A stretch of DNA of 64,000 bases from Cyanobacteria bacterium P01_H01_bin.74 (GTDB lineage Bacteria > Cyanobacteriota > Vampirovibrionia > Vampirovibrionales > Vampirovibrionaceae), in contig JBCDLA010000001.1 in NCBI GenBank assembly GCA_038745945.1, positions 1,898-65,897 of the forward strand. The letters are read 5' to 3'. Position 1 is the stretch's first letter. Each line of letters begins with the position of its first letter. Shown here in pieces: positions 1-62,995 of this stretch. The notes under the pieces are model-generated. The model was not told the DNA's origin. It ran no database searches and saw only the letters and a list, made by a program, of their open reading frames with translations. A program made the position numbers and the translations under genes.

Positions 1-634
1 TCATCGTTTCAGCGTCCAAAAACAACTGAAAAAAAGGATTACCCAGATCGTAATGATTCTGGATATTGGTGACACTGTTTTGTTTGTTGTTGTCTTTCAG
101 CAAATGCACAAACCGATTAAAACTGCCCAGCAGATTTATTTTCCAATCTTTTGACCCACTGCCTTCTAATACAGTCGATTGGCTGACATTAACAATAAAC
201 CACCGAATCACAGCGGCAATATCCGGGGTATCCCACATGCCTTGCATGTAGGCTTCAGAAAACCCAATATGACCAAAGAGAATGACTTGCCTGAAAAATT
301 CATCTGAGTGCACAATAATATGCGGCGTGGCTGCAGGCTCTGTAGCGTTATCTTGTGAGGTATTTATCCCAAAGCGCAAGGTTTGCGTATGCGGCAGCGG
401 CAAACTCAGCAAGAGCTGGCCTTGAGACATCGATTTCAGCGCATTTAAAAAAATCAGGCAGCATTGGCGGGAAATCCAGTCCATTGACTGAAGGGCTGGC
501 TTGATCTGTTTTGGATGGTCGTATAAAACCGAGTGATCTGTGCGCTTTTCAACACCTTGGCAATCAACGGTCCTTGAGGTGGTCTTTGACGTAGTCTTCG
601 GGTCTAAAAAATCAATATCGGCTTGCGTGGGCAT
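1..634 (-). CDS. cfa: Cyclopropane-fatty-acyl-phospholipid synthase family SAM methyltransferase. Partial: the N-terminal part is in the window and the gene continues past the left edge.
   Basis: Minus-strand ORF with ATG at ~634, not in the ORF track because it runs off the edge. My translation ends ...IQNHYDLGNPFFQLFLDAETM(MYS), which matches the conserved HYDLGNDFF..LFLD..MMYS block of CFA synthases. Confidence 0.6.
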   Translation of the reverse strand, partial: MPTQADIDFLDPKTTSKTTSRTVDCQGVEKRTDHSVLYDHPKQIKPALQSMDWISRQCCLIFLNALKSMSQGQLLLSLPLPHTQTLRFGINTSQDNATEPAATPHIIVHSDEFFRQVILFGHIGFSEAYMQGMWDTPDIAAVIRWFIVNVSQSTVLEGSGSKDWKINLLGSFNRFVHLLKDNNKQNSVTNIQNHYDLGNPFFQLFLDAETM

Positions 635-721: not shown

Positions 722-1210
722 CTAAACTTGTGCAGGGTGATTACGCAAGGCCGGAATATAAATAAACGCACTCACAATCAGGGAAGCCCCAATGCCCAGA
801 TTAATACTACCGCGAAGCAAAGGGGGGACACCAATCACGTTAAGCAAAACCGCAATCATCACCATAATCGAGATCATAACCCAGCTTCTTATACTGTAAA
901 CTGAAAGGGGCCGTTTTTTCTCAGTTAACGCATTCAGCCGATCAATATTTCTTTTACAGGTTTTTGAGAGGACAAATTTGCCTTTTGCACCCCCAATGAT
1001 CAAGGCCAGTGCTATGCTGATCAGCACTAGGGTCATATTTTCCGCCAAAGTGTATCCAGCAATAAAGTCAATGCCACGCAAGGTCATAATTAATCCGCCG
1101 ACCATCCAGATCCCACAAGCCAGAAGCATTAGTTCTTTTTTACCCAGCTTGATGGGCAAAAAAAACAGGGCAAGAAATACAAATGGCATCACTGGAATGG
1201 TTGTAGGCAT
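722..1210 (-). CDS. Hypothetical polytopic membrane protein (about 4-5 TM helices).
   Basis: 162-aa ORF, hydrophobic throughout, no recognisable motif. Confidence 0.4.
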   Translation of the reverse strand: MPTTIPVMPFVFLALFFLPIKLGKKELMLLACGIWMVGGLIMTLRGIDFIAGYTLAENMTLVLISIALALIIGGAKGKFVLSKTCKRNIDRLNALTEKKRPLSVYSIRSWVMISIMVMIAVLLNVIGVPPLLRGSINLGIGASLIVSAFIYIPALRNHPAQV

Positions 1211-1465
1211 AAGGCGTTGGCTTTCTTAAGTTTAACAAGTGTATTCGGCTGAGGGCGAGATGAGAATGAGGAACAAAGCTCAGGGTATCTATTTTGCATC
1301 GCACAGAGGGAGATGACAAGGATTCTTGAAAAAACAATAATTCATAAAGCAGTTCAAATTTTGGCGGAACGATTTTGAAATGGCTGTGCAGTTTAAAAAA
1401 CCAATGATTGCCTGAAAGTGTGTTGTTCCTGTTAAAAAGATTATTAAGGCTTAAATTATTAACGG

Positions 1466-2413
1466 TTAAAGCTGATACTTTTGAACCAGTGCCCTCACCC
1501 GTGAATCGCTGATGGGGTGACTTTGCAAGAACTCAGGCGTGCCATTATTGGGCGATGCCGCTTTCAGTATTTCAAATACACGCAATGCTGCTTTTGGGTT
1601 GTAAGCAGCAGTCCGCATCAGCCGAACCCCCAAATCATCCGCCTGGTATTCCAGTGTTCTGGAAGATCGCTTGTCCACAAGGCCGATGCCCAACTGACTT
1701 GCGAGATCGAGAATTTGGCTTTGATTGGTAAACCGACTTAACACGTAACGGTTGAGCAACGACAAGCCCACTTGACGCCGTTGGGTTTTGCCAATATGAT
1801 TCAGCAGAATATGGCTTAACTCATGGGAAATCACAAAAGCCCGTTCATCGGCCGTGCGTAAATTGTTTAACAGACCGCTAGTAATGACAATCGATTGGCC
1901 GTCGGTCGCTGCATTAAGCGTGTTGCTGTTCTGAACGGCTATGCCTTTTACTTCATCGCTGGGAATGTTGTTTGCCCGCATCAGGCTGCTTAAGATCACC
2001 TCGGGCTGAATGCTTTTGCTGACCTGGCCCGTGTAAACAGCCTGTGCCAGATAGGTTTTGTTTTGGGGCTGACTGGCCACTGCTTTTTTCTTTAAGGGTT
2101 GTACTGGATTTGAAGCACTTTTTTTCACTTTGGGGGTATTAAAACGGCTATAAGGCTTGTAATATCGGCCATAGCCGGGGGTATACGGCATGTTTTGCGC
2201 TTGAGCGACTAAACGCCCATCCCCCAAAAAAGCCAGCAATACTACTGACAACAGGCCTAAAACCCAACCACGGTTGACGTGCTTAACAGTCCTCCTTTCC
2301 GTGAGAAAATGATAAAACTTGGCCGATAAAATCAAAGCATTTTTTTTCACAAAAAACCTGTGCTTATTTGTTAACATCATAAAAAGTCTAAAATCTTTTA
2401 AAAATCGAAACAT
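1466..2413 (-). CDS. M48-family Zn metallopeptidase (HExxH), membrane-anchored or secreted.
   Basis: HELSHILLNH motif (HExxH plus downstream His) with an N-terminal hydrophobic anchor. The start may be an internal Met. Confidence 0.6.
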   Translation of the reverse strand: MFRFLKDFRLFMMLTNKHRFFVKKNALILSAKFYHFLTERRTVKHVNRGWVLGLLSVVLLAFLGDGRLVAQAQNMPYTPGYGRYYKPYSRFNTPKVKKSASNPVQPLKKKAVASQPQNKTYLAQAVYTGQVSKSIQPEVILSSLMRANNIPSDEVKGIAVQNSNTLNAATDGQSIVITSGLLNNLRTADERAFVISHELSHILLNHIGKTQRRQVGLSLLNRYVLSRFTNQSQILDLASQLGIGLVDKRSSRTLEYQADDLGVRLMRTAAYNPKAALRVFEILKAASPNNGTPEFLQSHPISDSRVRALVQKYQL

Positions 2414-2487
2414 GGAGAATCAATTGAATTCAATTGACTGTGGCATAAACCCTTTTAGACGCGCAACAGGCAAACATGTTTCTGCCA

Positions 2488-3969
2488 TCAGGTCACTGTC
2501 ATGATTGGGCGGTTGGACAAGTAGGGCAAATGACGCTCAGTGATGATTTCACCAGGCAACAAAACGGGAATGCCGGGGGGACAACTGGCAATGACTTCTT
2601 TTGCAATTTTTCCGACCGCAGCTTCTGGCATCAACGGGCTACCCTGGCTGAAAAAAGCCGCTCTCGGGGACAATGCCATTTGGGGCAAAAAGCTGCGGTC
2701 GGAAAAATTGGCTTCCGTTTTTTCTACATCAATTTTTTCTATGTCAATTTTTTCTATATCAGGGCTTTCTGCTGGCTTAGAAATCTCTTTTAAAAGGCTG
2801 AAATCAGACCCTTCATAAGCGTGTAATGCTTCAAGCAGCCGGTCAAAATCTGCTGCAGTTAAACCGATATTCCCCATATACAAGGCTGAACGGTGGTTGA
2901 TGGACTCGTAAGCAATGCCGTTCGGTTGTGTTTCAAGCGGGATGGCCCATTGATCGGGTGGGGTTATGTGATGCTGGTTGTGGTGTTTAATAACCAGCTT
3001 TGCCGGATCCCAATAGTTTCTGGCTTCTTCTGTTTGAGGTGAAAATACTGAAAAAGCATTCAACTGTGCTTTTGCTTTTTGACGAAACTGTTTAACCCAC
3101 TGGAAACAGTTTGAAATCGTCGCTTTACCCTTAGCACTGGCCAAAAAGCCGACAGTACTTTCAAGGCTCGCAAGCAACAGGTAAGATGGGCTGGTTGTTT
3201 GTAACACATTGAGTGCCTGCTGAAAAGCAGCAGGATCAATACGGGATCCATGCGGCAAGTGGGCAATAGCGGTCTGGGTTAAACTGGTCGCACTTTTGTG
3301 TAACGACTGTACCACCACATCACAGGCAAAGTGGGCCGCTGATACCGGCAAATTCTCAAAGAAGGGCCACAAACTGCCATGTGCCTCATCAACAATAAGA
3401 AGTAGATTGTTCTTTTGGCACCAGGTTGCAATGGCTGCAATGTCTGAGCCAATGCCTTCATACGTGGGCGAGGGTAAAATAAGTGCTTTGCAATCTGGCT
3501 GACGCTTTTTAGCAGTCTCCAGGGCGTCAATAGATAATGCCCCCCAGAATCCCCACTGGCTGTAGTAATCTGCATTTGGTAATACCCATACGGGCTGTGC
3601 ACCGGTTAAGACCAGCCCGTTTATCACACTGCGGTGGCAGTTCCGGCTTACCAGCACTTTATCGCCAGCCTTTAATGCAGTCAGCATTGCTGCCATCAGG
3701 CCAACACTGGCACCATTAATTAGGTAATAACTTCTCTGAACCCCAAAGATTTCCGCTGCCCATGCTTGGGACTCAGCAATACAGCCTGTTGGTTCAGAGA
3801 GCACATCCAAATCATCAACTTCTGTTAAGTCAAACTGAAAAGCTGTTTCAGATCCAAGCGCAAGCCGTTTTTTAAAGAGGGTACCGTTTCCCGCATGGCC
3901 TGGGACATGAAAGCGAGCCCTCTTTTTTTTCTGATAATCTATTAAGGCCTGGTTAATAAACACACACAA
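2488..3969 (-). CDS. PLP-dependent Orn/Lys/Arg decarboxylase family enzyme (SpeA-like arginine/lysine decarboxylase).
   Basis: N-terminal FHVPGHAG..G and the SLHKSATSLTQTA PLP-lysine region, ~490 aa. The C-terminal part contains an (EKIDI)x3 pentapeptide tandem repeat. Confidence 0.75.
   Translation of the reverse strand: MCVFINQALIDYQKKKRARFHVPGHAGNGTLFKKRLALGSETAFQFDLTEVDDLDVLSEPTGCIAESQAWAAEIFGVQRSYYLINGASVGLMAAMLTALKAGDKVLVSRNCHRSVINGLVLTGAQPVWVLPNADYYSQWGFWGALSIDALETAKKRQPDCKALILPSPTYEGIGSDIAAIATWCQKNNLLLIVDEAHGSLWPFFENLPVSAAHFACDVVVQSLHKSATSLTQTAIAHLPHGSRIDPAAFQQALNVLQTTSPSYLLLASLESTVGFLASAKGKATISNCFQWVKQFRQKAKAQLNAFSVFSPQTEEARNYWDPAKLVIKHHNQHHITPPDQWAIPLETQPNGIAYESINHRSALYMGNIGLTAADFDRLLEALHAYEGSDFSLLKEISKPAESPDIEKIDIEKIDVEKTEANFSDRSFLPQMALSPRAAFFSQGSPLMPEAAVGKIAKEVIASCPPGIPVLLPGEIITERHLPYLSNRPIMTVT
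2718..2762. repeat. 15-nt x3 in-frame tandem repeat (tttttctaYRtcaat) inside the decarboxylase gene, encoding IEKID IEKID VEKTE.
   Basis: Read directly from the sequence. Confidence 0.75.
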
Positions 3970-7900: not shown

Positions 7901-8287
7901 ATGATCTATTCAATTCTTTCAAGTGTGGCAATATTACTCTTGTTTGTGGGTTGGTTAAACCGCAAAAAAATACGCACCCATATGGCCTTTATGTCAACGG
8001 CATTTGTTTTAGACATTGCCATACTGCTGATGGTTGAACTCAATAAAAGTGCCATTTTAACCACCAGCAAAAATTTATTTAATCCCCAAGCTGGTACGGC
8101 GTTGCTGTTATTTCATGTTTTGGTTTCAGTCTTGATGCTGGTGTTTTATGTGATGCAGTTGCGTACAGGGTATCTGGCGTTTCAAGGTGTGCATCAGACA
8201 GTTACATTTCACCGGAATGTCGGAATGGCCTTTTTTACGTGCCGGTTGCTCAACTACATCACCAGTTTCTGGGTGATTACAAGTTAA
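7901..8287 (+). CDS. Small hypothetical membrane protein (about 4 TM).
   Basis: 128-aa hydrophobic ORF, convergent with the acidic family protein. Confidence 0.35.
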   Translation: MIYSILSSVAILLLFVGWLNRKKIRTHMAFMSTAFVLDIAILLMVELNKSAILTTSKNLFNPQAGTALLLFHVLVSVLMLVFYVMQLRTGYLAFQGVHQTVTFHRNVGMAFFTCRLLNYITSFWVITS

Positions 8288-8314: not shown

Positions 8315-10186
8315 TTACCTTTCATCATTATTAGGGTTGTCTTCATCATTGTCTCCCAGGCCTTCATATTCTGCGAGACCAAATTCATCTAAAAATTCTG
8401 CTCGTGAATATTCATCGTAGCCAAATTTATCAAAGTATCCGCTGTAGATAAAATCGACAATTTCTGACACAGCAATTTGCTGATTTCCCATTTCTGGTCC
8501 GGTATCATCATCATTTTCAGGGTTGTCGTGCCAGTTTCCTCGCCGGTCTAAATATTGAACAATGGGCACTGATCTGCCAATACCTTTACCCAGCTGTTCT
8601 TTGAGGAGGGTAAGGGCAGCTATTAGCTTTTCGTCTTCTTGTGCATTTTCAGTAATGAAACTAGAAACTGAGTCTCCAGTAATTACACCTTTCTTATCGC
8701 CGTCTTTAACAACAATATCAGCCAAGTATGGTGCCAAGGTTTCAAGCCATTCCAAGTAGCGGCCTTTTTCTTCGTCTGTATCATCACTCCAGTCTCTGTG
8801 ATTCTCACCTGCTGAATCCATATCGTCAGGGTTAATTACAAAAGTATCATTACTGCTTGAATAGTAATTGATATTAAAATCATCATAAAAAGGCGGCGGA
8901 GAAGGCGGTGGCGGTTCTGTACCTTGCTCTTCATCACCCGGTGTATCGCCTGTTTCCTCTGTATCCGGCTCATCAGCCCCTGCCGGCGCTTCAGAAGACC
9001 AAGTATCGTAATTCTCTTCAATGTAATCATCAATATTGCCTGTATTCAGTTTTGCTTTCAGAAAATCTTTGGGTATGCCCAACTGTGCTCCGAGCTTGGC
9101 TGCTGTTTCTATACTAATTCTTACTTTACCCTCATGTAATGTATAGTTATCGGTTAACGTTTCAACCAGTGAACTGCCTTCCATTTCAGTCATAAAGTAA
9201 ATCAAGGTATCCAATGCCTGTTTCTTGACAGTGGACAGTGATCCTGTTTTTCCTCGGTAGTCTCTTATTTCATCGATGTCGATATAATCATCACCGTCAT
9301 CACTGTTTTCAATCTGATCCCACATGTTTATAAATTCTTTGACTGTTTTCTTTTTGGCTTCAAAATGCTCGTCTTCCCCACTATCATCTGCCCATTTGTA
9401 AGAATCAACAAACCCGGAATCTCGGATGCCGTATATGGTTACATTATCATCGGTAGTTTCATAGGCAATGCCGTTGTATATATAGTAACGTGGGTTATTA
9501 GAGTTACCCCCTGAACCGCCATCAGCCCCTGTGACCCCAGGGGCCCACTGACTTGCGCCTACACCAGATGCACCAGCAACGGTTCTGCTTATTGGTTTCT
9601 CATACAAGTTAAAATAGTTACCGCCTGTGCTATCAAGTCTGCCAAGTGGTACCATTCCACCGCCAGCTGTTGGACTACGGTAATTGCTTCGGCAGCAGCA
9701 ACACCCACAACCATTGCCATGGGTGAGATGGGTATTCATTTGGTGCTGATGCACCCCATACGAATGTAAAGTGGCGTGTTTTAAACCATTGGTTTGGTTA
9801 TCGGAGTTTGCTACATTTTCTTGATTTAAAAATAGCCTGTTGTTCAGCTGTTCATAAAAGTCAGACTGCTGATTGATGTTATTGGCTGTTAATAAGATAG
9901 GTCCCTGCCAGTTCTGTATGGCAATATAGGCACTATTGTTCTGCTCAGCACCAGGGGGGTACCAAACATTTTCTTGCCCTGGCATGTTGATTGCGTTTGT
10001 ACGGAGGTCAAAAAAGGTAACATTTGAGCCATATTGCTTAAAAAAGTAATCATCGGCTTCCAAATCCAATACCTCTGCAAATGGATTGGCGTGATTCTCG
10101 ATATTTGCTGAAAAATTCTTTGCAAACATGACACATCTCAAACGTTGAGCCCTATCATCCACTGAAACGCTAAAATCTTTGCACAA
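8315..10186 (-). CDS. Large (~600 aa) highly acidic, N/Y/D-rich protein with a GNGCGCCCC cysteine cluster and no signal peptide. Member 1 of a 3-member in-window paralogous family; likely foreign or effector-like.
   Basis: The ORF-track start at 10186 is TTG; the first ATG is at 10129 (MFAKNF...). The N-terminal ~110 aa align with ORF 30015..30584: NPF-x4-DL vs NPY-x4-DL; QYGSNVTFF vs DYGVDNTVPY; NSAYIAIQNWQGP vs NYNAWLSRTNWTTNPG; QSDFYEQLNNRLFL vs NSAIEMVENLGFVL. The C-terminal ~380 aa are D/E-rich. The gene is flanked by a 540-bp AT-rich non-coding stretch. Confidence 0.5.
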   Translation of the reverse strand: MCKDFSVSVDDRAQRLRCVMFAKNFSANIENHANPFAEVLDLEADDYFFKQYGSNVTFFDLRTNAINMPGQENVWYPPGAEQNNSAYIAIQNWQGPILLTANNINQQSDFYEQLNNRLFLNQENVANSDNQTNGLKHATLHSYGVHQHQMNTHLTHGNGCGCCCCRSNYRSPTAGGGMVPLGRLDSTGGNYFNLYEKPISRTVAGASGVGASQWAPGVTGADGGSGGNSNNPRYYIYNGIAYETTDDNVTIYGIRDSGFVDSYKWADDSGEDEHFEAKKKTVKEFINMWDQIENSDDGDDYIDIDEIRDYRGKTGSLSTVKKQALDTLIYFMTEMEGSSLVETLTDNYTLHEGKVRISIETAAKLGAQLGIPKDFLKAKLNTGNIDDYIEENYDTWSSEAPAGADEPDTEETGDTPGDEEQGTEPPPPSPPPFYDDFNINYYSSSNDTFVINPDDMDSAGENHRDWSDDTDEEKGRYLEWLETLAPYLADIVVKDGDKKGVITGDSVSSFITENAQEDEKLIAALTLLKEQLGKGIGRSVPIVQYLDRRGNWHDNPENDDDTGPEMGNQQIAVSEIVDFIYSGYFDKFGYDEYSRAEFLDEFGLAEYEGLGDNDEDNPNNDER

Positions 10187-10683
10187 TTATTTATCAAATA
10201 ATTGACTCATTAAATCATTGTTTTTACTCTATGCATTCAGGTGAACAAGAGACAGAGATTTGACGACGCATCCCCCAAAAAATCTTTTTGAGTTACTTGT
10301 CTAAAAATGTATCCAATTGGAATACATTCCTGTAAAATCAGTTCTGTCTGTTTTTCAGATAGGAATTTTTTCTACTACTTTTACTCAATTGCATAAAAAC
10401 CTGCAAATGTATTTTTGTGCTATGATTCACTTGTAAAAAGATATTGATGCGCAAATAGCTTTAGCGTTATTCTATGAAATTTTAGTGAGTTGAAGTTTTT
10501 TATCAAGTACAAGTAAGGGTTCAACAAGTACTAAATTCGAGTAAAAACTTATAATTTAAACACATATGTCCCGCCCCCCGAACTGTTAAAACACTACTAA
10601 ACTTTATAATACGCTGACTTTAGAATAAAAATGCACTCTAAATTCTTGAATCTTATTGCAAATAATTCTCATTTGGTTTATAA

Positions 10684-10700
10684 TTGAGAATAAATCTCAA
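10684..10700. promoter_or_regulatory. Perfect palindrome TTGAGA-ATAAA-TCTCAA about 30 bp upstream of the 143-aa ORF; candidate operator.
   Basis: Seen in sequence. Confidence 0.3.
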
Positions 10701-10726
10701 TAGAGAGCACTTTTAGGAGTAAAAAA

Positions 10727-12852: not shown

Positions 12853-12871
12853 AAATTAGTTGATCAAATTC

Positions 12872-15800
12872 ATGAAAAACACCCCGATAAAAAGCGTCGT
12901 TTATGTCATTGTTATTGCTTGGGTTATTGTTTTCCAAGCAACCGTTGCAACAAGTCGCAGTGCAGACTTAAACGACATGCCGATTCTCCATATTAATGGG
13001 TCTCAAAACGATAACAACACGCCAGCGGTTCAACGCCTGATTGAAATCTCAAAGCAACAGGGTGATCGGCCCCTGATTGTAAAACCCAGCGATTATCTGC
13101 GCCCATTAAAAGCCGAATGGATTGTACTTCCGGTTCCCCAGAAACTACAGACGCCATACAGCCACACGGCCATTCAGACCAGTATTTTTAATATTGCAAA
13201 CAGCCAAAAAACCCTGATCATGGCCTTGCCAGAAAATCCGGATCAATCCGTAATGAATATGCTGGAGCAATTGGGCATTATTTGTGATGGCACAGAAAAG
13301 ATTAAAGTTACGGGCCTTCAGTGGCTTCAAACCAAGCAAGCAACCCAACAGGAGTCTGAAAAAGAGACAACGGCCCCAGCCTATGAAATATCCCCTGTGA
13401 AAACGCCACTGCAAACTGAGGCTAAAAATAAGATCTCGCTGTTAAAAATTATTCCGTCAGCCCAAGATATTGTTGCTGCAAAGTGGCAAGACCGCCTGCC
13501 GGCTGTTGTCATCCGAAAACAGGCTGGCTTGCGTCTGGTATTATTTAATCTGCCGCTTCAAGCTTTGCACCTGCCTTACGGCAAAGTGTTGCATCAAACA
13601 CTTGCCATGCTTTACCCGGATTTTATGGATGCCCCTGACAGCCCCCCTTCTGCCAGTCAGCACCTGGTCTATCACGAGAATAAATCCGAACCCCTGAAGC
13701 CACTGTCGCTATTGGCCATTCATCCACAACAGACAGCCACCAGTAAAAAAGCGCTTGCGCCAGATAAGACAAATGCGCCAGAAAAAACGCCCTTAATTCC
13801 ACTGGATCAAACAGCAGCAGCGTTCTTGGCCAACAAGCGTCTTTTTTTTGATAACAAGCGTTTTGACAATGCGCATTTTACTGGAAAATTGCCGGTGCTT
13901 AACCCTAAAAACTCTCCACAACAAGGTGCAGCCCAAGCTGAGGCTGGCTTTGTCATAGACGGCCCAGCGCAACAAGCAACAAACGCGGCGAGTAGCAATT
14001 TTACCAGCCGCCTGCTAAAACAATTGGCAGAAACAGTTTACGATCGCAGCAAGCCATTGTCTGAGCCGCCTGAAATCATTTTAAACCTGCATCCCTTGCC
14101 TGAAAAGCAAGCAGCAAAAAACACTGACGCAAGTTCTAAGAAAACAGAGGCAAACGCAGCGCAATCATCGAATCCATCCGATCCGTTGCCGCTAAAAACA
14201 GAAGACAGTGCCATTGACTCGGTATTGGAAACCATTCTTGGGACAGAGAACAACGACAGTAATAAAAAGAACGAAAACAAAGCAATCAGACCTGATCATA
14301 AAAGCCATCACAAGCAAAAAGGCCGTCAAAGAACCCAGAAATACTTTAGCTTTTTGGACCCAGTCTCTGCTTCTCAAGCCCTTCAACCCAATTACGATCG
14401 GGGACTGTACCACAGTTATCTTAACCTCTTGGAGGCAATGATGGACAGGACCCGTCAAAACCTGGCCACCAATGCCCTGCTGGGATTCAATCTGGATAAC
14501 TCAGCCATAAATAGCAACCTTGAAAAAACCGCGCAAGCAAAAAAAGAATTTAAAGCCCACTACAAGCCAGGCCAGACACAAGCAGGTTTAAACCACTTTG
14601 AAGTGGGTTATAAAGCGGCAATGGCTGCACTCAGTGACTCTGAGGTGGTTTCACCTGTGGGCGCCAATGCCATTTGGCTGGACCGGGGCACCATTGTTTC
14701 ATTGGGCAACGCAGACCGGCTGCGCAGTCATATTCAACAATTGCACCAGGCGGGCATTAATCTGATTTATTTTGAGACCATCAATGCCGGTTACCCGATT
14801 TATCCCAGTAAACTGGTTGCGCAAAATCCGTTGATCCAAGGTTGGGACCCGCTGGCAGTTGCCATCGATGAATCCCATCGGCTGGGTATGGAATTGCACG
14901 CCTGGGTGTGGAGTTTTGCAGTCGGCAATACCCGACACAACGCCATTATTGGAAAACCCGCCCACTATCCGGGGCCGGTATTTGACCGTTACCCGGCCTT
15001 ACGGCAAGAAATGCTGGTTAACCGGTACGGCAAACACCGGCCAGCAGGCCAGCACGAGTACTGGCTCAGCCCGGCCAGTGAGAAATCTCGTGCGTTTTTA
15101 AAAAACTACTACAGAGAAATTGTTGAAAATTATGCCGTAGACGGCTTGCACCTGGATTATATTCGTTACCCATTTCAGAAGTACAGCAGCCAGATGGGCT
15201 ACGAACGCGTTGGACAAGAAGCTTATGCATCAGAGACAGGCCGTTTGTCTCATCACTTTCACCAACGCAGCACGCCCCACTGGATCCGGTGGAAATCCAG
15301 GCAAGTCAGTCAATTTGTACAAGACATTGCAACGACAATGCGCGCGATTCAACCCGATTTGATTCTTTCTGCCGCGGTCTTTCCCATGCCGCGTGCTTCT
15401 CGTATAACAGCCATTCAGCAGGATTGGGAAACCTGGCTGGACAATGGCTGGGTCGACATGATTAACCCGATGGTCTATACGCGCAACCCGCAAAAATTCA
15501 AACGGCTGATTGCCCAAATCAAGCAGAGCCCCAAACACGATCCGGTCCTTTACCCAGGCATAGCCATGCACAAAATTGATGCCAATCAGTTGTACCTGGA
15601 ACTCAAGGCCTTGAAAGAAACCGGCCTGGTGGGAAATACACTGTTTGCCAGCGCCTATTTTAATTCCCCCAAGCGTACAGTTTTGTCGTCTGGCCTGGCG
15701 CACTTAAAACACACCAAGACAAAGCCCTACACAGAAAACACAAACTACGCCGGCAACGAAAAAAACCCAAAAGAAATGACCAGCCAGCATTCATCCCCGT

Positions 15801-16384
15801 CCCAAACTGGACTTACCGGAAACCCAGCCCCCGTATCCCCAAAACCTTTTATTGCCTTGCCGCACCGCGACCCCATCAAAAAAGCCCAATTGCTTGCCAC
15901 TTTTTTTAAAACCCACTGGCAAGCGTTTCATAAAAATACACAGCCAGACAGTGGCATTCAATTGGTCAATATTCGTGTTAATCAAGAAACTCAAACAGGC
16001 CAGGCAACTCGCCCCAAATCCCCGGTAAAGCCAGCGGTTGTGTTTACTGATAAAAAGCAGCTCGCATTAACGCAGTCTGGTATTCAGCCTGCGGTCTACA
16101 ACGGTGTGATTGCCGCAGTGCCAGCAAAACAAAACCAAGCAACCCAGGCCGTCAATCAAAAACTGCACGTGTTTCTTGAGGAATTAAACAATCATGCCAG
16201 CCTGTCCGAAACCCAGACAACCCCTGGACCGGCGAAAACTGATACGCTCGAAATGGCGCTCAACGCGCTGCAAGATGCAGTTAAAAACTGGTCGGTGGAA
16301 TTGCCTGAAGCCCATGCCCCTGTGGCTGATTTTTTCAAGCAGACGCTGGCCCAAACCCAGACCGTTCTTATTTTTTGCCGCTAA
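12872..16384 (+). CDS. Large secreted protein (~1170 aa) with a central glycoside-hydrolase-like family 10 domain (GHL10/DUF4015, YngK-like), a K/N/Q-rich low-complexity linker, and unknown N- and C-terminal regions.
   Basis: Signal peptide MKNTPIKSVVYVIVIAWVIVFQATVATS. GHL10-type block ...NLIYFETINAGYPIYPS...GMELHAWVWSF...VDGLHLDYIRYP.... The ORF-track start at 12860 is TTG; the first ATG is at 12872. Confidence 0.7.
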   Translation: MKNTPIKSVVYVIVIAWVIVFQATVATSRSADLNDMPILHINGSQNDNNTPAVQRLIEISKQQGDRPLIVKPSDYLRPLKAEWIVLPVPQKLQTPYSHTAIQTSIFNIANSQKTLIMALPENPDQSVMNMLEQLGIICDGTEKIKVTGLQWLQTKQATQQESEKETTAPAYEISPVKTPLQTEAKNKISLLKIIPSAQDIVAAKWQDRLPAVVIRKQAGLRLVLFNLPLQALHLPYGKVLHQTLAMLYPDFMDAPDSPPSASQHLVYHENKSEPLKPLSLLAIHPQQTATSKKALAPDKTNAPEKTPLIPLDQTAAAFLANKRLFFDNKRFDNAHFTGKLPVLNPKNSPQQGAAQAEAGFVIDGPAQQATNAASSNFTSRLLKQLAETVYDRSKPLSEPPEIILNLHPLPEKQAAKNTDASSKKTEANAAQSSNPSDPLPLKTEDSAIDSVLETILGTENNDSNKKNENKAIRPDHKSHHKQKGRQRTQKYFSFLDPVSASQALQPNYDRGLYHSYLNLLEAMMDRTRQNLATNALLGFNLDNSAINSNLEKTAQAKKEFKAHYKPGQTQAGLNHFEVGYKAAMAALSDSEVVSPVGANAIWLDRGTIVSLGNADRLRSHIQQLHQAGINLIYFETINAGYPIYPSKLVAQNPLIQGWDPLAVAIDESHRLGMELHAWVWSFAVGNTRHNAIIGKPAHYPGPVFDRYPALRQEMLVNRYGKHRPAGQHEYWLSPASEKSRAFLKNYYREIVENYAVDGLHLDYIRYPFQKYSSQMGYERVGQEAYASETGRLSHHFHQRSTPHWIRWKSRQVSQFVQDIATTMRAIQPDLILSAAVFPMPRASRITAIQQDWETWLDNGWVDMINPMVYTRNPQKFKRLIAQIKQSPKHDPVLYPGIAMHKIDANQLYLELKALKETGLVGNTLFASAYFNSPKRTVLSSGLAHLKHTKTKPYTENTNYAGNEKNPKEMTSQHSSPSQTGLTGNPAPVSPKPFIALPHRDPIKKAQLLATFFKTHWQAFHKNTQPDSGIQLVNIRVNQETQTGQATRPKSPVKPAVVFTDKKQLALTQSGIQPAVYNGVIAAVPAKQNQATQAVNQKLHVFLEELNNHASLSETQTTPGPAKTDTLEMALNALQDAVKNWSVELPEAHAPVADFFKQTLAQTQTVLIFCR

Positions 16385-30014: not shown

Positions 30015-30584
30015 CTAACCAAAATAAGGAATAAAATGATTTATCCCTGGTGGGTTTGATTCATAAAAAGTATTTGTAGTACTTGTACTCAAGCTGTTAA
30101 GGCCGGGTTGAACCTGCCACGATGTGTTCACAGGACTCTCTTGACTGATATCAACACCGAAGCGAAGGTTATTATTACCCGCTGAACTAACGCCAGAGGA
30201 ACCTGTATCTGGTGGTGGCGCAGCAGATACACCACTGGTTGGTGCAATACCGAAAAAGGGATCAATAATTCTGATGTCATAATCAGAATTGTACTCGGGT
30301 AACTGACTGGCATAGTCGTAGCCAGTGTAAGCGCCATCTTCAGTGTATGGTGGTGTAACCGTCTTGTGTTGTGCTTCTGCTCCCAATACAAAACCAAGGT
30401 TTTCTACCATTTCAATGGCACTATTGACCCCTGGGTTTGTGGTCCAGTTGGTTCTGGACAGCCATGCATTGTAGTTGGCTGTGGTGTAAGGGACAGTGTT
30501 ATCTACACCATAATCGGTAATTGGACCATTGTGGCTAAATGGTGGTAAATCTGGCTTTGGGTTATACGGGTTGAGAAAATACAT
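30015..30584 (-). CDS. N/Y/T/P-rich protein (~189 aa) with no signal peptide. Member 2 of the paralogous family.
   Basis: The internal ATG (MYFLNPYNP...) is preceded by a strong SD (AAGGAGGAG), so the real start is ~30584 rather than 30632. N-terminal blocks align with ORF 8315..10186. The C-terminal GNNNLRFGVD block resembles the N-terminus of ORF 58202..58753. Isolated between 600-bp and 350-bp AT-rich non-coding stretches. Confidence 0.5.
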   Translation of the reverse strand: MYFLNPYNPKPDLPPFSHNGPITDYGVDNTVPYTTANYNAWLSRTNWTTNPGVNSAIEMVENLGFVLGAEAQHKTVTPPYTEDGAYTGYDYASQLPEYNSDYDIRIIDPFFGIAPTSGVSAAPPPDTGSSGVSSAGNNNLRFGVDISQESPVNTSWQVQPGLNSLSTSTTNTFYESNPPGINHFIPYFG

Positions 30585-30985
30585 AAAACCGTTCTCCTCC
30601 TTGTTTGAAACACGAGAAACTGTTAACAACATGTCTTATTAGTTTCTCACTCAGATAATTTTTTAAAGACGGTTACATAGTATTGCGGATTTTTTCGGCA
30701 ATGCTGATTGCTCAACAATTACCAATATGCAATGGGTATAAACCGTGATGATGACACAAATTTTTCTAAATACCTACTCAAGAAAAACAGGAAATGTCTT
30801 TCTTATTTTTTAAAAATCTTCTATCAATTATATAAAAACAAGTATTTGGGTTTTTGTGCTAATGGCTTACCTATAATGAAATATAAAAGGATGGAAAATA
30901 TAAGTAACCCTGACAATGACAAAATTCATTTTCCTGTGCAAAATATCCATTACTAGTTTTGAATGCAAAAAACAAGCCTGTAAAA

Positions 30986-58201: not shown

Positions 58202-58753
58202 TTACCATTTTGTAGTAGCAGGATTACGCTCAGTTGCATCCAGTATATTTTGTTCTTCACCCACTGTTATGTTTTTGAGCCGCTCAAACCGATCTGTTAA
58301 ATCGCCCGTTTTTGACTGTTCCATCTCTCTTTCTTCTTTTCTTTTGTTATAAAAGTCATCAGCTTTATTATTAGCCTCAGGACTGAATAAATATTGCACC
58401 CTTTCGGGATTATATAATTTGGGGTAACCAACATAGCCGTCTCTTTCAGGCCCATCAGCATCAAAATTAACATTAGGGTTATTTCTTCGGACTGCTGCTT
58501 GTCTTTCTTCCCTTAATTTAGCTTCTTGATCGGCTTGGGTTAACCGTTCAAGGATTTCAGGATTATTTAATTTTTCCACTCTTGGTCCATTATAATTAGC
58601 ACCTTGTTCCAGATATTTAGCGTAAGCAACATCTTTTGATCTATCATATACTTCCCAATCAGTATCTTCTGAATCTTTTGGAGGCTTATCCCCCCCGAAG
58701 CGAAGAGTCGAATCAGTGTTATAGGAATTATTACCAGGGAAAAAGGAAACCAT
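58202..58753 (-). CDS. Hydrophilic N/D/E/Y/P-rich 183-aa protein with no signal peptide. Tentative member 3 of the paralogous family.
   Basis: N-terminal FFPGNNSYNTDSTLRFGGD resembles the GNNNLRFGVD block of ORF 30015..30584. YPKLYNPERVQYLFS resembles FLNPYNPKPDLPPFS. ATG start with a moderate RBS, in an AT-rich islet. Confidence 0.4.
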   Translation of the reverse strand: MVSFFPGNNSYNTDSTLRFGGDKPPKDSEDTDWEVYDRSKDVAYAKYLEQGANYNGPRVEKLNNPEILERLTQADQEAKLREERQAAVRRNNPNVNFDADGPERDGYVGYPKLYNPERVQYLFSPEANNKADDFYNKRKEEREMEQSKTGDLTDRFERLKNITVGEEQNILDATERNPATTKW

Positions 58754-60505: not shown

Positions 60506-62995
60506 TTATCTTGCATGAACCGACAGCCACTGCTGTTTAATGGCATGCAGATCAATGGGAGGGACTTCGGCAGTCAATTTCAGGGCAAAGTGATCATTGG
60601 TTGTTTCACCGAGACGGGCAAAAGACAACCCTGCCTTCTCGGCAGCCTGCCAGATAGGTTCTTCTTGCCCAGCCTCGTAAGCAATAATATAACTGCAAGC
60701 AGTTTCACCAAACCATTTCAAATCAAGTCGCTGGTTTTTCCCAGAATTGCTGCGCTCAGCCAGCAGTGATGACAACTGGTTTTGGCTGCAGTCCAGGCCC
60801 GCTTCATTAAAGAAAGCCATTTCCAGCAAGGTCGGCAAAACGCCACCCAGAGATACATCCTGAACAGCCACCACTTGCCGGGCATCAATCAGCGACAAGA
60901 GCAGTGCAATGGCTTTGGCCTCATAGGCCACATTGACCTCTGGCGGGGCTCCTTCAACGTTGCCTGTACGAAGCTTTAAATACTCTGTACTGCCCAGAAC
61001 CGGGTTAAAATGCCCAATCAGCGCCAGCGATACAAGCGTTTCTTTGGGGGCGGGCAGTGCCGCACCCATGATTTGGGAGTCATCGTTAATCAGGCCGGCC
61101 ATGCCAATGGTTGGTGTTGGGTAAATGGCTTCATCCCCATATTCGTTATAGAGGCTGACATTTCCGCTAATCACCGGTGTATTCAGACCCAGACAGGCAT
61201 CTTTTATGCCCTGAACGGCATAATGCAGCTGATGATAAATTTCTGACCTTTCAGGGTTCCCAAAATTCAGGTTGTCAGTGACTGCCAGTGGCTTAGCACC
61301 CGTACATGCCAGGTTTCTGGCTGCTTCAGTAACGGCATACAGGCTGCCTTTGTAAGGATCAGTGTGAACATACCGCGGGTTACAGTCAACGGTCAAGCTT
61401 AAGGCTTTTCCGCTAAAGCGGCCGTCTTTTTGCCGCAACCGAATCACACCAGCCGTTAAGTGCGCTGAATCAAGCACAGTAGCGTTTTGAACGTGGCGGT
61501 CGTATTGCTGGATGACACCCACCGGTTTTGCAATGTTTTGAGACCGCATCATTTTTTCAAGGAACTGGCGCAGCTCTTGGGGGTTAATATCTGGCAGACC
61601 CTTTAAAACATCTTTCTCCCGACGGGCTTTTGCAGACGGGGGCTCATCGGGCATTAATTGCCGGTGATATGATGGGGCCAGGTCCGTCAGCAGCTTGGCT
61701 GGTACACAAGCCACTTGTTCATTGTGGTGCCGAATGTCTATGGTACAATCTGCCGTAATTTCACCAATAACAGCAGAAGCAACCCCCCACTTGGTAAAAA
61801 TATCTTGGATAGCTTGGGTTTTGCCACGTTCAATCACCAGCAGCATTCGTTCTTGTGACTCAGAAAGCAGGTATTCATGGGGCTGCATTCCAGGCTCTCG
61901 TGCTGGGACCGCATCCAGATTAATCTGAATGCCAACATTGCCCTTTGCAGCCATTTCTGCACTGGAACTGGTTAAGCCTGCGGCCCCCATATCCTGGGCT
62001 GCTACAACATGGCCGGTTGCAAAGGCTTCTAAACAGGATTCAATCAGCAGCTTTTCAGCAAAGGGGTCACCCACCTGCACAGCCGGACGATCTGCCGTGC
62101 TGTTTTCATCCAGCGCCTTGCTGGCAAAGGCTGCCCCGCCCATGCCGTCTTTTCCGGTTGCAGATCCCACATACAAGACTGGATTTCCCACCCCGTAAGC
62201 CTTGGAAGAAATATCATTGCGGTCATAAAGAATGCCAACCGCCATCGCATTCACCAAGGGATTGCCATTGTAGCAGTCTTCAAAAAAGACATCTCCGGCA
62301 ATGGTTGGCACGCCAACACAGTTGCCATAGTGGGCAATGCCATTCACTGCCCGAGAAAACAAGTAGCGGTTGTGCTTTTCTGTATAGTTAGTTTCTGTAT
62401 AGTTAGTTTCTGTATAGTTAGTTTCTGTATAGTTAGTTTCTGTATAGTTAGTTTCTGTATAATTAGTTTCTGAACAACTATTGTTTTCTGTGTCTTTGTT
62501 TTCTAGATTTGGAGAAGCCGCTACTGGTCCAAAGCGCAATGCATTCAAGTTGGCAATGGGCCGGGCATTCATTGTAAAAATATCTCTGAGTATCCCACCT
62601 ACACCAGTTGCAGCCCCCTGAAACGGCTCCACAGCGGTGGGATGGTTGTGGCTTTCAATTTTAAAAGCAATTTGTATGCCATCCCCAACATCAACAATGC
62701 CAGCATTTTCGCCTGGGCCCGCAACAACACAATCGCCTGTGCTCGGAAGCTGCTTTAGCAAGTGCCGTGAGTTTTTATAACAGCAGTGCTCGCTCCACAA
62801 CACACTGAACATGGCCAGCTCGTTAAAATTGGGCGGACGGTTTAAGTTGGCCTTAATTTTGCCGTACTCAGATTGCAGCAGGTTAAACTGTTTCAACAGG
62901 CCTTCCAGCTGATCATCAGGAATCTCAAAGTTTTTCCGGCAATCAGCGTCAGGCACTGGCTCTGATTTTAATGCTTGGGTGGGGTCAGGCGACAT
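60506..62995 (-). CDS. purL: Phosphoribosylformylglycinamidine synthase subunit PurL (FGAM synthase II) carrying a ~60-aa low-complexity insertion.
   Basis: PurM-like tandem domains (e.g. ...GAATGVGGILRDIF..., ...DNLNFGNPE...). 829 aa versus the typical ~740. Confidence 0.9.
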   Translation of the reverse strand: MSPDPTQALKSEPVPDADCRKNFEIPDDQLEGLLKQFNLLQSEYGKIKANLNRPPNFNELAMFSVLWSEHCCYKNSRHLLKQLPSTGDCVVAGPGENAGIVDVGDGIQIAFKIESHNHPTAVEPFQGAATGVGGILRDIFTMNARPIANLNALRFGPVAASPNLENKDTENNSCSETNYTETNYTETNYTETNYTETNYTETNYTEKHNRYLFSRAVNGIAHYGNCVGVPTIAGDVFFEDCYNGNPLVNAMAVGILYDRNDISSKAYGVGNPVLYVGSATGKDGMGGAAFASKALDENSTADRPAVQVGDPFAEKLLIESCLEAFATGHVVAAQDMGAAGLTSSSAEMAAKGNVGIQINLDAVPAREPGMQPHEYLLSESQERMLLVIERGKTQAIQDIFTKWGVASAVIGEITADCTIDIRHHNEQVACVPAKLLTDLAPSYHRQLMPDEPPSAKARREKDVLKGLPDINPQELRQFLEKMMRSQNIAKPVGVIQQYDRHVQNATVLDSAHLTAGVIRLRQKDGRFSGKALSLTVDCNPRYVHTDPYKGSLYAVTEAARNLACTGAKPLAVTDNLNFGNPERSEIYHQLHYAVQGIKDACLGLNTPVISGNVSLYNEYGDEAIYPTPTIGMAGLINDDSQIMGAALPAPKETLVSLALIGHFNPVLGSTEYLKLRTGNVEGAPPEVNVAYEAKAIALLLSLIDARQVVAVQDVSLGGVLPTLLEMAFFNEAGLDCSQNQLSSLLAERSNSGKNQRLDLKWFGETACSYIIAYEAGQEEPIWQAAEKAGLSFARLGETTNDHFALKLTAEVPPIDLHAIKQQWLSVHAR
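62377..62478. repeat. 15-nt x ~6.5 perfect in-frame tandem repeat (gtttctgtatagtta) inside purL, encoding (TNYTE)n.
   Basis: Seen directly. The protein shows SETNYTETNYTETNYTETNYTETNYTETNYTEKHN. Confidence 0.85.

Follow-up and report, generated by a model that had tools for sequence, protein, structure and literature searches.

A histidine, methionine and cysteine segment conserved in an acidic orphan protein pair from an uncultured Vampirovibrionales bacterium, and its possible role as a soft-metal site

Here, we describe an orphan gene on a 64,000-nt stretch of contig JBCDLA010000001.1 (positions 1,898 to 65,897) from the metagenome-assembled genome (MAG) Cyanobacteria bacterium P01_H01_bin.74. 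This whole stretch is referred to below as the window, and coordinates are counted from its first letter. The gene lies on the minus strand at 8315..10129, stop codon included, and was delineated from its open reading frame (ORF), its database identity (MEM0950517.1, AAGI66_00050) and its alignment with a single paralogue. A mechanical ORF call on the same strand covers 8315..10186, beginning at TTG 10186. Translation most likely begins with the ATG at 10129, giving a protein of 604 residues, because the annotated protein starts there and the paralogue aligns from the same methionine; the extension from the TTG to the ATG is probably not translated. Residue numbers refer to the 604-residue protein, and numbering based on the ORF used in the initial annotation of this DNA runs 19 higher.

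The most distinctive feature of the protein is a cysteine string, C141-G-C143-C144-C145-C146, seen in the translation and in the paralogue alignment and encoded at 9692..9709 (-). Upstream of it in the protein lies a His/Met segment, residues 118-137 (H118, H122, H127, H129, M131, H134 and H137; 9719..9778, minus strand). The initial annotation had described a His-rich stretch directly followed by CGCCCC and then by a Gly/Ser-rich linker, and the translation bears this out: HSYGVHQHQMNTHLTHGNG stands directly before CGCCCC, the His stretch begins at 9766, and the CGCCCC codons occupy 9709..9692, both inside the interval 9550-9780 that it had singled out. The translation of MEM0950517.1 also contains the acidic runs that it had quoted, namely DDGDDYIDIDE, EEQGTEPPPPSPPP and DNDEDNPNNDER. 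All five cysteines of the protein fall within six residues (141 and 143-146), six of its 11 histidines fall in residues 118-137, and the ligand-type residues of the motif, five cysteines, four histidines and one methionine, all lie within 29 residues. For chance estimates, the remaining 34 long ORFs of the window supplied the background composition. With that composition, at least five cysteines per six residues are expected about 3e-7 times per protein and at least six histidines per 20 residues about 1e-3 times per protein, and none of the other 34 long ORFs has three or more cysteines in any six-residue window. The Cys/His feature is real and non-random.

A comparison with the paralogue allows the residues under constraint to be picked out. 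When 1.84 billion cluster representatives, which cover about 15 billion proteins, were scanned exhaustively with phmmer, the single other match was a protein of 623 residues (P0002; MEM0951707.1, AAGI66_06140) encoded on a different contig of the same MAG and sequencing run. It is 40% identical over the full length (E 7e-94). Its pI is 4.35, and all six of its cysteines lie in the string C-Q-C-C-C-C-C, so the cluster, whose absence or variability in orthologues had been named in the initial annotation as evidence against it, is retained in the only homologue. The motif G-[VI]-H-Q-H-x-M-N-T-x3-H-G-x2-C-x-C-C-C-C is invariant in both copies, and among the individual residues H118, H127, H129, M131 and H137 are invariant between the paralogues, as are C141 and C143-146.

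The string is written TGT GGG TGT TGC TGC TGC in the 604-residue gene and TGC CAA TGT TGT TGC TGT TGC in the paralogue, and identity between the two genes at the three codon positions is 56/65/36%, with both reading frames intact over about 600 codons. This pattern indicates that purifying selection acts on the protein and that silent sites are saturated. Because the cysteine codons differ synonymously and third positions are only 36% identical, conservation of the string reflects selection on its residues rather than recent gene conversion or a triplet-repeat artefact. Conservation between the paralogues is blocky, and the motif segment sits between two fast-evolving low-complexity stretches.

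The remainder of the protein, encoded throughout on the minus strand, can be divided by the paralogue alignment. At its start is a conserved peptide, residues 1-18 (10076..10129), of the form M-[FL]-AKNFS-x2-I-x4-NPFA, in which 11 of the first 20 alignment columns are identical, compared with 1-6 of every 20 across the next 100 residues. The peptide is not hydrophobic, and may act as a signal for export or targeting, or in interaction with a partner. It is followed by a poorly conserved N/Q-rich region, residues 19-117 (9779..10075), so that about 100 N/Q-rich residues before the motif are almost unconserved between the paralogues. Beyond the cysteine string, a variable linker rich in Gly, Ser and Ala (residues 147-212; 9494..9691) has large indels relative to the paralogue and a single small conserved block, GNYF-x-x-Y-x-x-P. 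The best-conserved part of the protein, supported by both the alignment and a domain model, is a central domain of about 50% identity (residues 213-380; 8990..9493). A second variable linker, acidic and Pro-rich (residues 381-415, …DEPDTEETGDTPGDEEQGTEPPPPSPPP; 8885..8989), is Gly/Asp-rich in the paralogue, and leads to a C-terminal domain that is acidic and, from the alignment and model, mainly helical (residues 416-604; 8318..8884), in which the blocks RYLEWLE and QYLDRRG are conserved and the tail is acidic.

The very low pI and the acidic C-terminal region of about 380 residues proposed in the initial annotation both hold: the pI is 4.2, residues 226-604 contain 92 D/E against 32 K/R (net charge -60), and the D/E excess of the protein has a P of about 1e-13 relative to the window ORF composition. 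This acidity is marked yet shared, as the neighboring flavodoxin has a pI of 4.27 and 19.7% D+E. The acidic runs themselves fare less well as a feature. DDGDDYIDIDE aligns with the non-acidic REGTVVHLHLNE in the paralogue, EEQGTEPPPPSPPP aligns with a Gly-rich stretch, and the C-terminal tail keeps its acidity across the two copies only in part. As far as the alignment goes, overall negative charge is a property of the family and the specific acidic runs are not. The absence of a signal peptide, which had also been noted, holds by hydropathy, with no dedicated predictor run: neither a hydrophobic N-terminus nor a membrane segment is present, and the highest 19-residue Kyte-Doolittle mean is 0.67.

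The protein had been presented as one member of a family in this DNA. No paralogue was found inside the window by tblastn, all-against-all blastp (E up to 0.5) or phmmer --max, and a two-paralogue profile found no further copy among all six-frame segments of the window; its sole relative lies elsewhere in the genome. What had been grouped as a family may be two other acidic ORFs, at 30015-30632 (-) (205 residues, pI 4.3) and 58202-58753 (-) (183 residues, pI 4.8). These are Cys-free and rich in N, Y, P and G, lack a Pfam match or signal peptide, and show no detectable similarity to the 604-residue protein or to each other.

Beyond the genome, the protein, the two-sequence profile and the motif alone were each run against 5.8 billion proteins in a word-indexed search and retrieved only the query itself or nothing, and no homologue was found in JGI metagenome contigs, IMG/VR viral contigs or PLSDB plasmids. 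Pfam, searched at E up to 10 with the full-length protein and with three segments of it, gave no credible match, nor did NCBIfam, PHROGs or PADLOC, and a profile search of PDB sequences gave chance matches only (E above 1). We rejected a Lactamase_B assignment, which scored 16.6 bits against a cut-off of 22.7. The concern that the protein might turn out to belong to a mundane enzymatic family thus finds no homology behind it in any of these five resources. On present data, the family appears to be a genome-specific ORFan pair without established function.

A full-length AlphaFold model built from the two-sequence alignment has a predicted local distance difference test (pLDDT) score of 36 and is unusable; values are 21-29 over residues 19-117, which given the shallow alignment is no proof of disorder. 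A model of residues 205-385 reached a pLDDT of 59 and a predicted template modelling score (pTM) of 0.60, with its helices at 62-85. It shows three short strands and then a helical part with two helix-loop-strand-helix units. Foldseek found no significant fold match for this model in the PDB (best E 2.2, TM-scores <=0.26). The idea that the C-terminal and central helical domains are an internal duplication was rejected, with an hhalign probability of 0.1%.

The two loci also share a conserved non-coding element of 36 nt, GTTTTTATGCAATTGAGTAAAAGTAGTAGAAAAAAT, located at 10365..10400 (-), 236 nt upstream of ATG 10129. Between the paralogue loci this box (TTTTTATRCAATTGAGTAWAAGTAGTAGAAAAAA) is identical at 34 of 36 positions (94%, E 6e-12); the paralogue's copy lies at 520..555 of its locus sequence (L002), 174 nt upstream of its ATG. 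It is the best-conserved DNA of the locus, above any coding stretch, and the AT-rich DNA around it is unalignable. Inside it is an imperfect palindrome, TTTTA-NN-CAATTG-NN-TAAAA, centred on CAATTG. The window contains no second copy, even allowing three mismatches, no Rfam family matches the element, and a sigma-70 consensus promoter scan did not call it in either locus. A metagenome match (L083) covered only the 22 nt searched, on an unrelated AT-rich contig, and we treated it as chance. The element is a candidate for a shared operator or promoter. A terminator-like hairpin at 10342-10364 (+) abuts it, its T-tail complementing the A-run of the element. Since the corresponding place in the paralogue locus shows no more than a stem made up of A and T, the hairpin is probably not the conserved function. 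Further upstream, at 10654-10702, a 21-nt imperfect inverted repeat (TATTGCAAATAATTCTCATTT / AATTGAGAATAAATCTCAATA) includes a perfect ATTGAGA-N5-TCTCAAT and overlaps a good sigma-70-like promoter, TTGCAA-17-TATAAT (10656-10684), that precedes a 143-residue ORF and the flavodoxin gene. This repeat looks like a Fur-type iron box on the flavodoxin operon.

The 604-residue gene is neighbored by genes for a DUF420 protein, a TPR lipoprotein and the flavodoxin, and its paralogue by aminotransferase, threonine synthase, homoserine dehydrogenase and ATP synthase genes. The DUF420 membrane protein gene (7901-8287, plus strand) is convergent with the 604-residue gene, with 27 nt between their stop codons. 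DUF420 includes CtaM, needed for aa3-type oxidase function in Staphylococcus, and a tie between this neighbor and copper handling would be pure speculation. A PNPase gene lies 2 kb from the 604-residue gene; its product is 76, 63, 61 and 59% identical to those of four Vampirovibrionales/Vampirovibrionaceae MAGs and at most 54% identical to those of other GTDB species representatives. This places the bacterium among the uncultured Vampirovibrionales, a non-photosynthetic cyanobacterial order, as judged from sequence identity. The closest Vampirovibrionales contig (L003, the one with 76% PNPase identity) keeps the order TPR lipoprotein, PNPase, decarboxylase-like protein (2-307, 839-3023), and ends exactly before the position of the 604-residue gene. 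In more distant relatives synteny is lost, and tblastn found no match to the 604-residue protein in any relative contig compared.

The rest of the window reads as chromosomal housekeeping, with genes for DnaX, L9, Der, PlsY, GpsA, GltX and KdsB, and further readings of Asd, MutL, PurF, PurL and an RND efflux pump; these labels come from ORF translations, family searches having covered only the neighbors of the 604-residue gene. Two other features deserve mention. A 1174-residue protein (12860-16384, plus strand) has a GHL10 glycosyl-hydrolase-like domain only at its residues 604-907, and about 600 N-terminal and 270 C-terminal residues that are Q/P/A/K-rich and unannotated. Within the ORF at 60506-62995 (-), which is large and resembles a purine-biosynthesis enzyme, FGAM synthase (PurL), a 15-nt tandem repeat at 62377-62472 (6.4 copies, 98% matches) encodes (TNYTE)x6, which is unusual for a housekeeping enzyme.

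What might the conserved segment do? On sequence grounds, its conserved cysteines, histidines and methionine make up a classical soft-metal ligand set, and the general marks of a soft-metal segment, clustered and conserved Cys, His and Met in an accessible region, are shared by the paralogues at 40% identity. Several bacterial proteins offer points of comparison. The CXXCGC motif of Escherichia coli HypB is a sub-picomolar Ni site, the tail of SlyD, which is unstructured and has many His, Cys, Asp and Glu residues, can take up as many as 7 Ni, and such His/Cys stretches serve as sites for soft metals, Ni and Zn among them (PMC7055735). Like the SlyD tail, HypB and Helicobacter pylori Hpn, our segment is a short, probably unstructured stretch with several histidines and CC or CxC in an acidic protein that appears to be cytoplasmic. 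Unlike SlyD and HypB, the 604-residue protein has no chaperone domain and no sequence homology to them: neither the FKBP-type peptidylprolyl isomerase (PPIase) or IF chaperone domain that defines SlyD (Pfam and NCBIfam, E up to 10) nor the SIMIBI-class P-loop GTPase domain of HypB, UreG and CobW (Pfam and NCBIfam) was matched. The segment is also internal rather than terminal, its histidines are spaced rather than in runs, and its four to five consecutive cysteines have no equivalent in SlyD, HypB or Hpn.

Thiolate clusters with Zn, Cd, Cu or Pb are found in bacterial SmtA/BmtA, in the CCCDGAC motif of ZntA and in the CC-dipeptide/His tail of plant HMA4. Our segment resembles such metallothioneins and P1B-type ATPase extensions in its dense C-x-C and C-C, which in them sometimes occur with His, and differs from them in being a single small cluster of 5-6 cysteines in about 600 residues without a transporter domain. 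The Metallothio_Pro family, which in SmtA/BmtA covers about 55 residues with a Cys9His2-type, zinc-finger-like fold, gave no Pfam match. A literature search for a 'CCCC motif' turned up zinc or Fe-S motifs with four spaced cysteines and nothing else; these have no bearing on the string. The likeness to known metal-binding segments is therefore one of analogy and not of membership, since the defining domains were searched for and are absent.

By this analogy we tentatively suggest, as the simplest explanation, that the segment is a flexible His/Met/Cys site for a soft metal. The strongly acidic, multi-domain protein would be soluble, with the motif segment exposed and flexible. Five or six thiolates, together with imidazoles and a thioether, might hold one or a few ions, whether Cu(I), Zn(II), Ni(II) or thiophilic ions of the Cd/As type, in a manner likened to that of the SlyD tail, HypB CXXCGC, metallothionein clusters and the Cys-rich extensions of P1B-type ATPases, and the activity proper, or the binding of partners, would then reside in the conserved central and C-terminal domains. 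From the lack of a signal peptide or membrane segment we infer a cytoplasmic location, in which the thiols would presumably be reduced and free for metal; metal binding itself and the choice of metal are likewise inferred. We favor a metal over acylation because four histidines and a methionine are invariant at 40% identity, which acylation would not explain.

Several observations weigh against this suggestion. Pfam, NCBIfam and PDB sequences hold no homologue among metallochaperones, metallothioneins or transporters, and no metal-homeostasis gene adjoins either paralogue. The density of histidines is below that of classical His-rich tails, and the structural model of the motif segment, with a pLDDT below 30, is unusable. 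The non-ligand Q, N, T and G of the motif are, moreover, as invariant as the ligands, and could mark a recognition site for a modifying enzyme or a partner. It is because binding is a prediction, because metal genes are missing next door and because these invariant residues could fit a recognition site that we keep our confidence short of even.

The run of cysteines lends itself to other explanations, of which membrane anchoring is the least unlikely. Eukaryotic cysteine-string S-acylation motifs occur in DNAJC5/CSP, SNAP-25 and PLSCR1, and our paralogues share with them a run of adjacent cysteines in a flexible region of a soluble protein without a membrane segment; unlike DNAJC5 and SNAP-25, the 604-residue protein has neither a J domain (no DnaJ match in Pfam) nor a SNARE domain. 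On this explanation, which we regard as unlikely, the protein would be a translocated effector injected into eukaryotic prey or a eukaryotic host, where DHHC palmitoyltransferases would S-acylate the string and anchor the acidic domains to a membrane. The Vampirovibrionales affiliation given by PNPase speaks for it: the order's sole cultured member, Vampirovibrio chlorellavorus, preys on Chlorella as an epibiont and has been proposed to deliver proteins by a conjugative-type type IV secretion system (PMC4451040). The family is also lineage-restricted, duplicated and fast-evolving, has a conserved N-terminal peptide without a signal peptide, and has an upstream DNA box common to both copies, as is often the case in effector regulons. 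There is precedent in the host-palmitoylated bacterial effectors SspH2, SseI, GobX and LpdA (PMC4951486). Known palmitoylated effectors, however, use one or two cysteines near a terminus, mostly a single one, and have no internal string; conserved His and Met neighbors are no trait of acylation sites, and the invariant His and Met of our motif are left unexplained by acylation. The term juxtamembrane-like, which the initial annotation applied to the cluster, is inapt for a protein with no membrane segment, and the residues after the string are basic in the 604-residue copy (RSNYR) and acidic in its paralogue (HYDETSDD), so there is no conserved membrane-proximal patch. VirB/D4 is the type of secretion system proposed for V. 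chlorellavorus; its substrates in Agrobacterium bear a positively charged C-terminal signal, and the last 30 residues of our proteins have the opposite charge (-9 in the 604-residue protein and -6 in the paralogue). Neither the 64-kb window nor the 10-kb locus of the paralogue contains a secretion-system gene, and no datum indicates a predatory lifestyle for this MAG. The version in full, in which the paralogues are a new family of prey- or host-injected effectors from a Vampirovibrionales bacterium of marine or other aquatic habitat, the host-acylated string tethers an acidic scaffold to the membrane and the 36-nt box marks a predation regulon, strikes us as rather unlikely.

The string might instead form intermolecular disulfides or a thiol redox switch that polymerizes or tethers an acidic structural protein, for instance one of the envelope, an attachment pad or a cyst matrix. 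The modular build, with Gly-rich and Pro-rich linkers between folded domains, the high acidity seen in many extracellular matrix proteins and the placing of all cysteines at one point, as in the interchain cystine knots of collagen III and minicollagens, would suit such a role. We nevertheless think it quite improbable, given that an export signal is absent, that adjacent cysteines give strained vicinal disulfides which are rarely structural, that the conserved His and Met are again left unexplained and that no envelope or matrix genes adjoin either copy. Calcium has a place in the discussion through the acidic C-terminal 380 residues, which might bind Ca2+ in an EF-hand-like way as the main function, with the string as an accessory. 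Their net charge of -60 would fit, as would the loop SDDGDDYIDIDE, which matches a relaxed 12-residue EF loop, the paired helix-loop-strand-helix units of the central-domain model, and the presence of troponin C, CBL2 and the calpain PEF domain among the non-significant Foldseek matches. This explanation is highly improbable: the candidate loop reads REGTVVHLHLNE in the paralogue, with its ligands lost, the other acidic runs fall in variable linkers, every Foldseek match has an E above 2 and a TM-score of at most 0.26, and EF-hand matches are lacking in Pfam at E up to 10 and, as PS00018, in either copy. Of the metal- or Ca-binding acidic scaffold put forward in the initial annotation, then, the metal-type site is the part favored by the invariant His, Met and Cys, and Ca binding, with an EF-like loop in one copy only, finds no support. 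Finally, the string could be incidental, the product of slippage in a TGY triplet repeat within a fast-evolving orphan gene, and serve no specific function. It is indeed encoded by TGT/TGC repeats, it differs in length by one cysteine between the copies, and the family is an ORFan. The present data speak strongly against such an accident, which we find scarcely credible: this is the most Cys-dense spot of the window proteome and is kept in both copies with synonymous turnover, it persisted while the surrounding 100 residues diverged almost completely, and both genes have intact frames of about 600 codons with an identity pattern of purifying selection. The remaining probability belongs to something not yet conceived.

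The case rests on one MAG, and no long-standing question depends on it. The protein family is new, with no known relatives, while acidic proteins with a metal-type segment rich in His and Cys are of a kind already known. Should the soft-metal suggestion be correct, the compact ligand set HQHxMNT-x3-HG-x2-CxCCCC would be one found in no characterized metalloprotein family, and its source would be a non-photosynthetic cyanobacterial branch that has hardly been studied. Should the string instead be a host-acylated anchor, the protein would be the first of its kind in the Vampirovibrionia, a candidate effector bearing a lipidation motif of eukaryotic type, and would open to experiment the way in which these bacteria attack algae. 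In both cases, this is an ORFan whose function-bearing residues can be located from one pair of paralogues.

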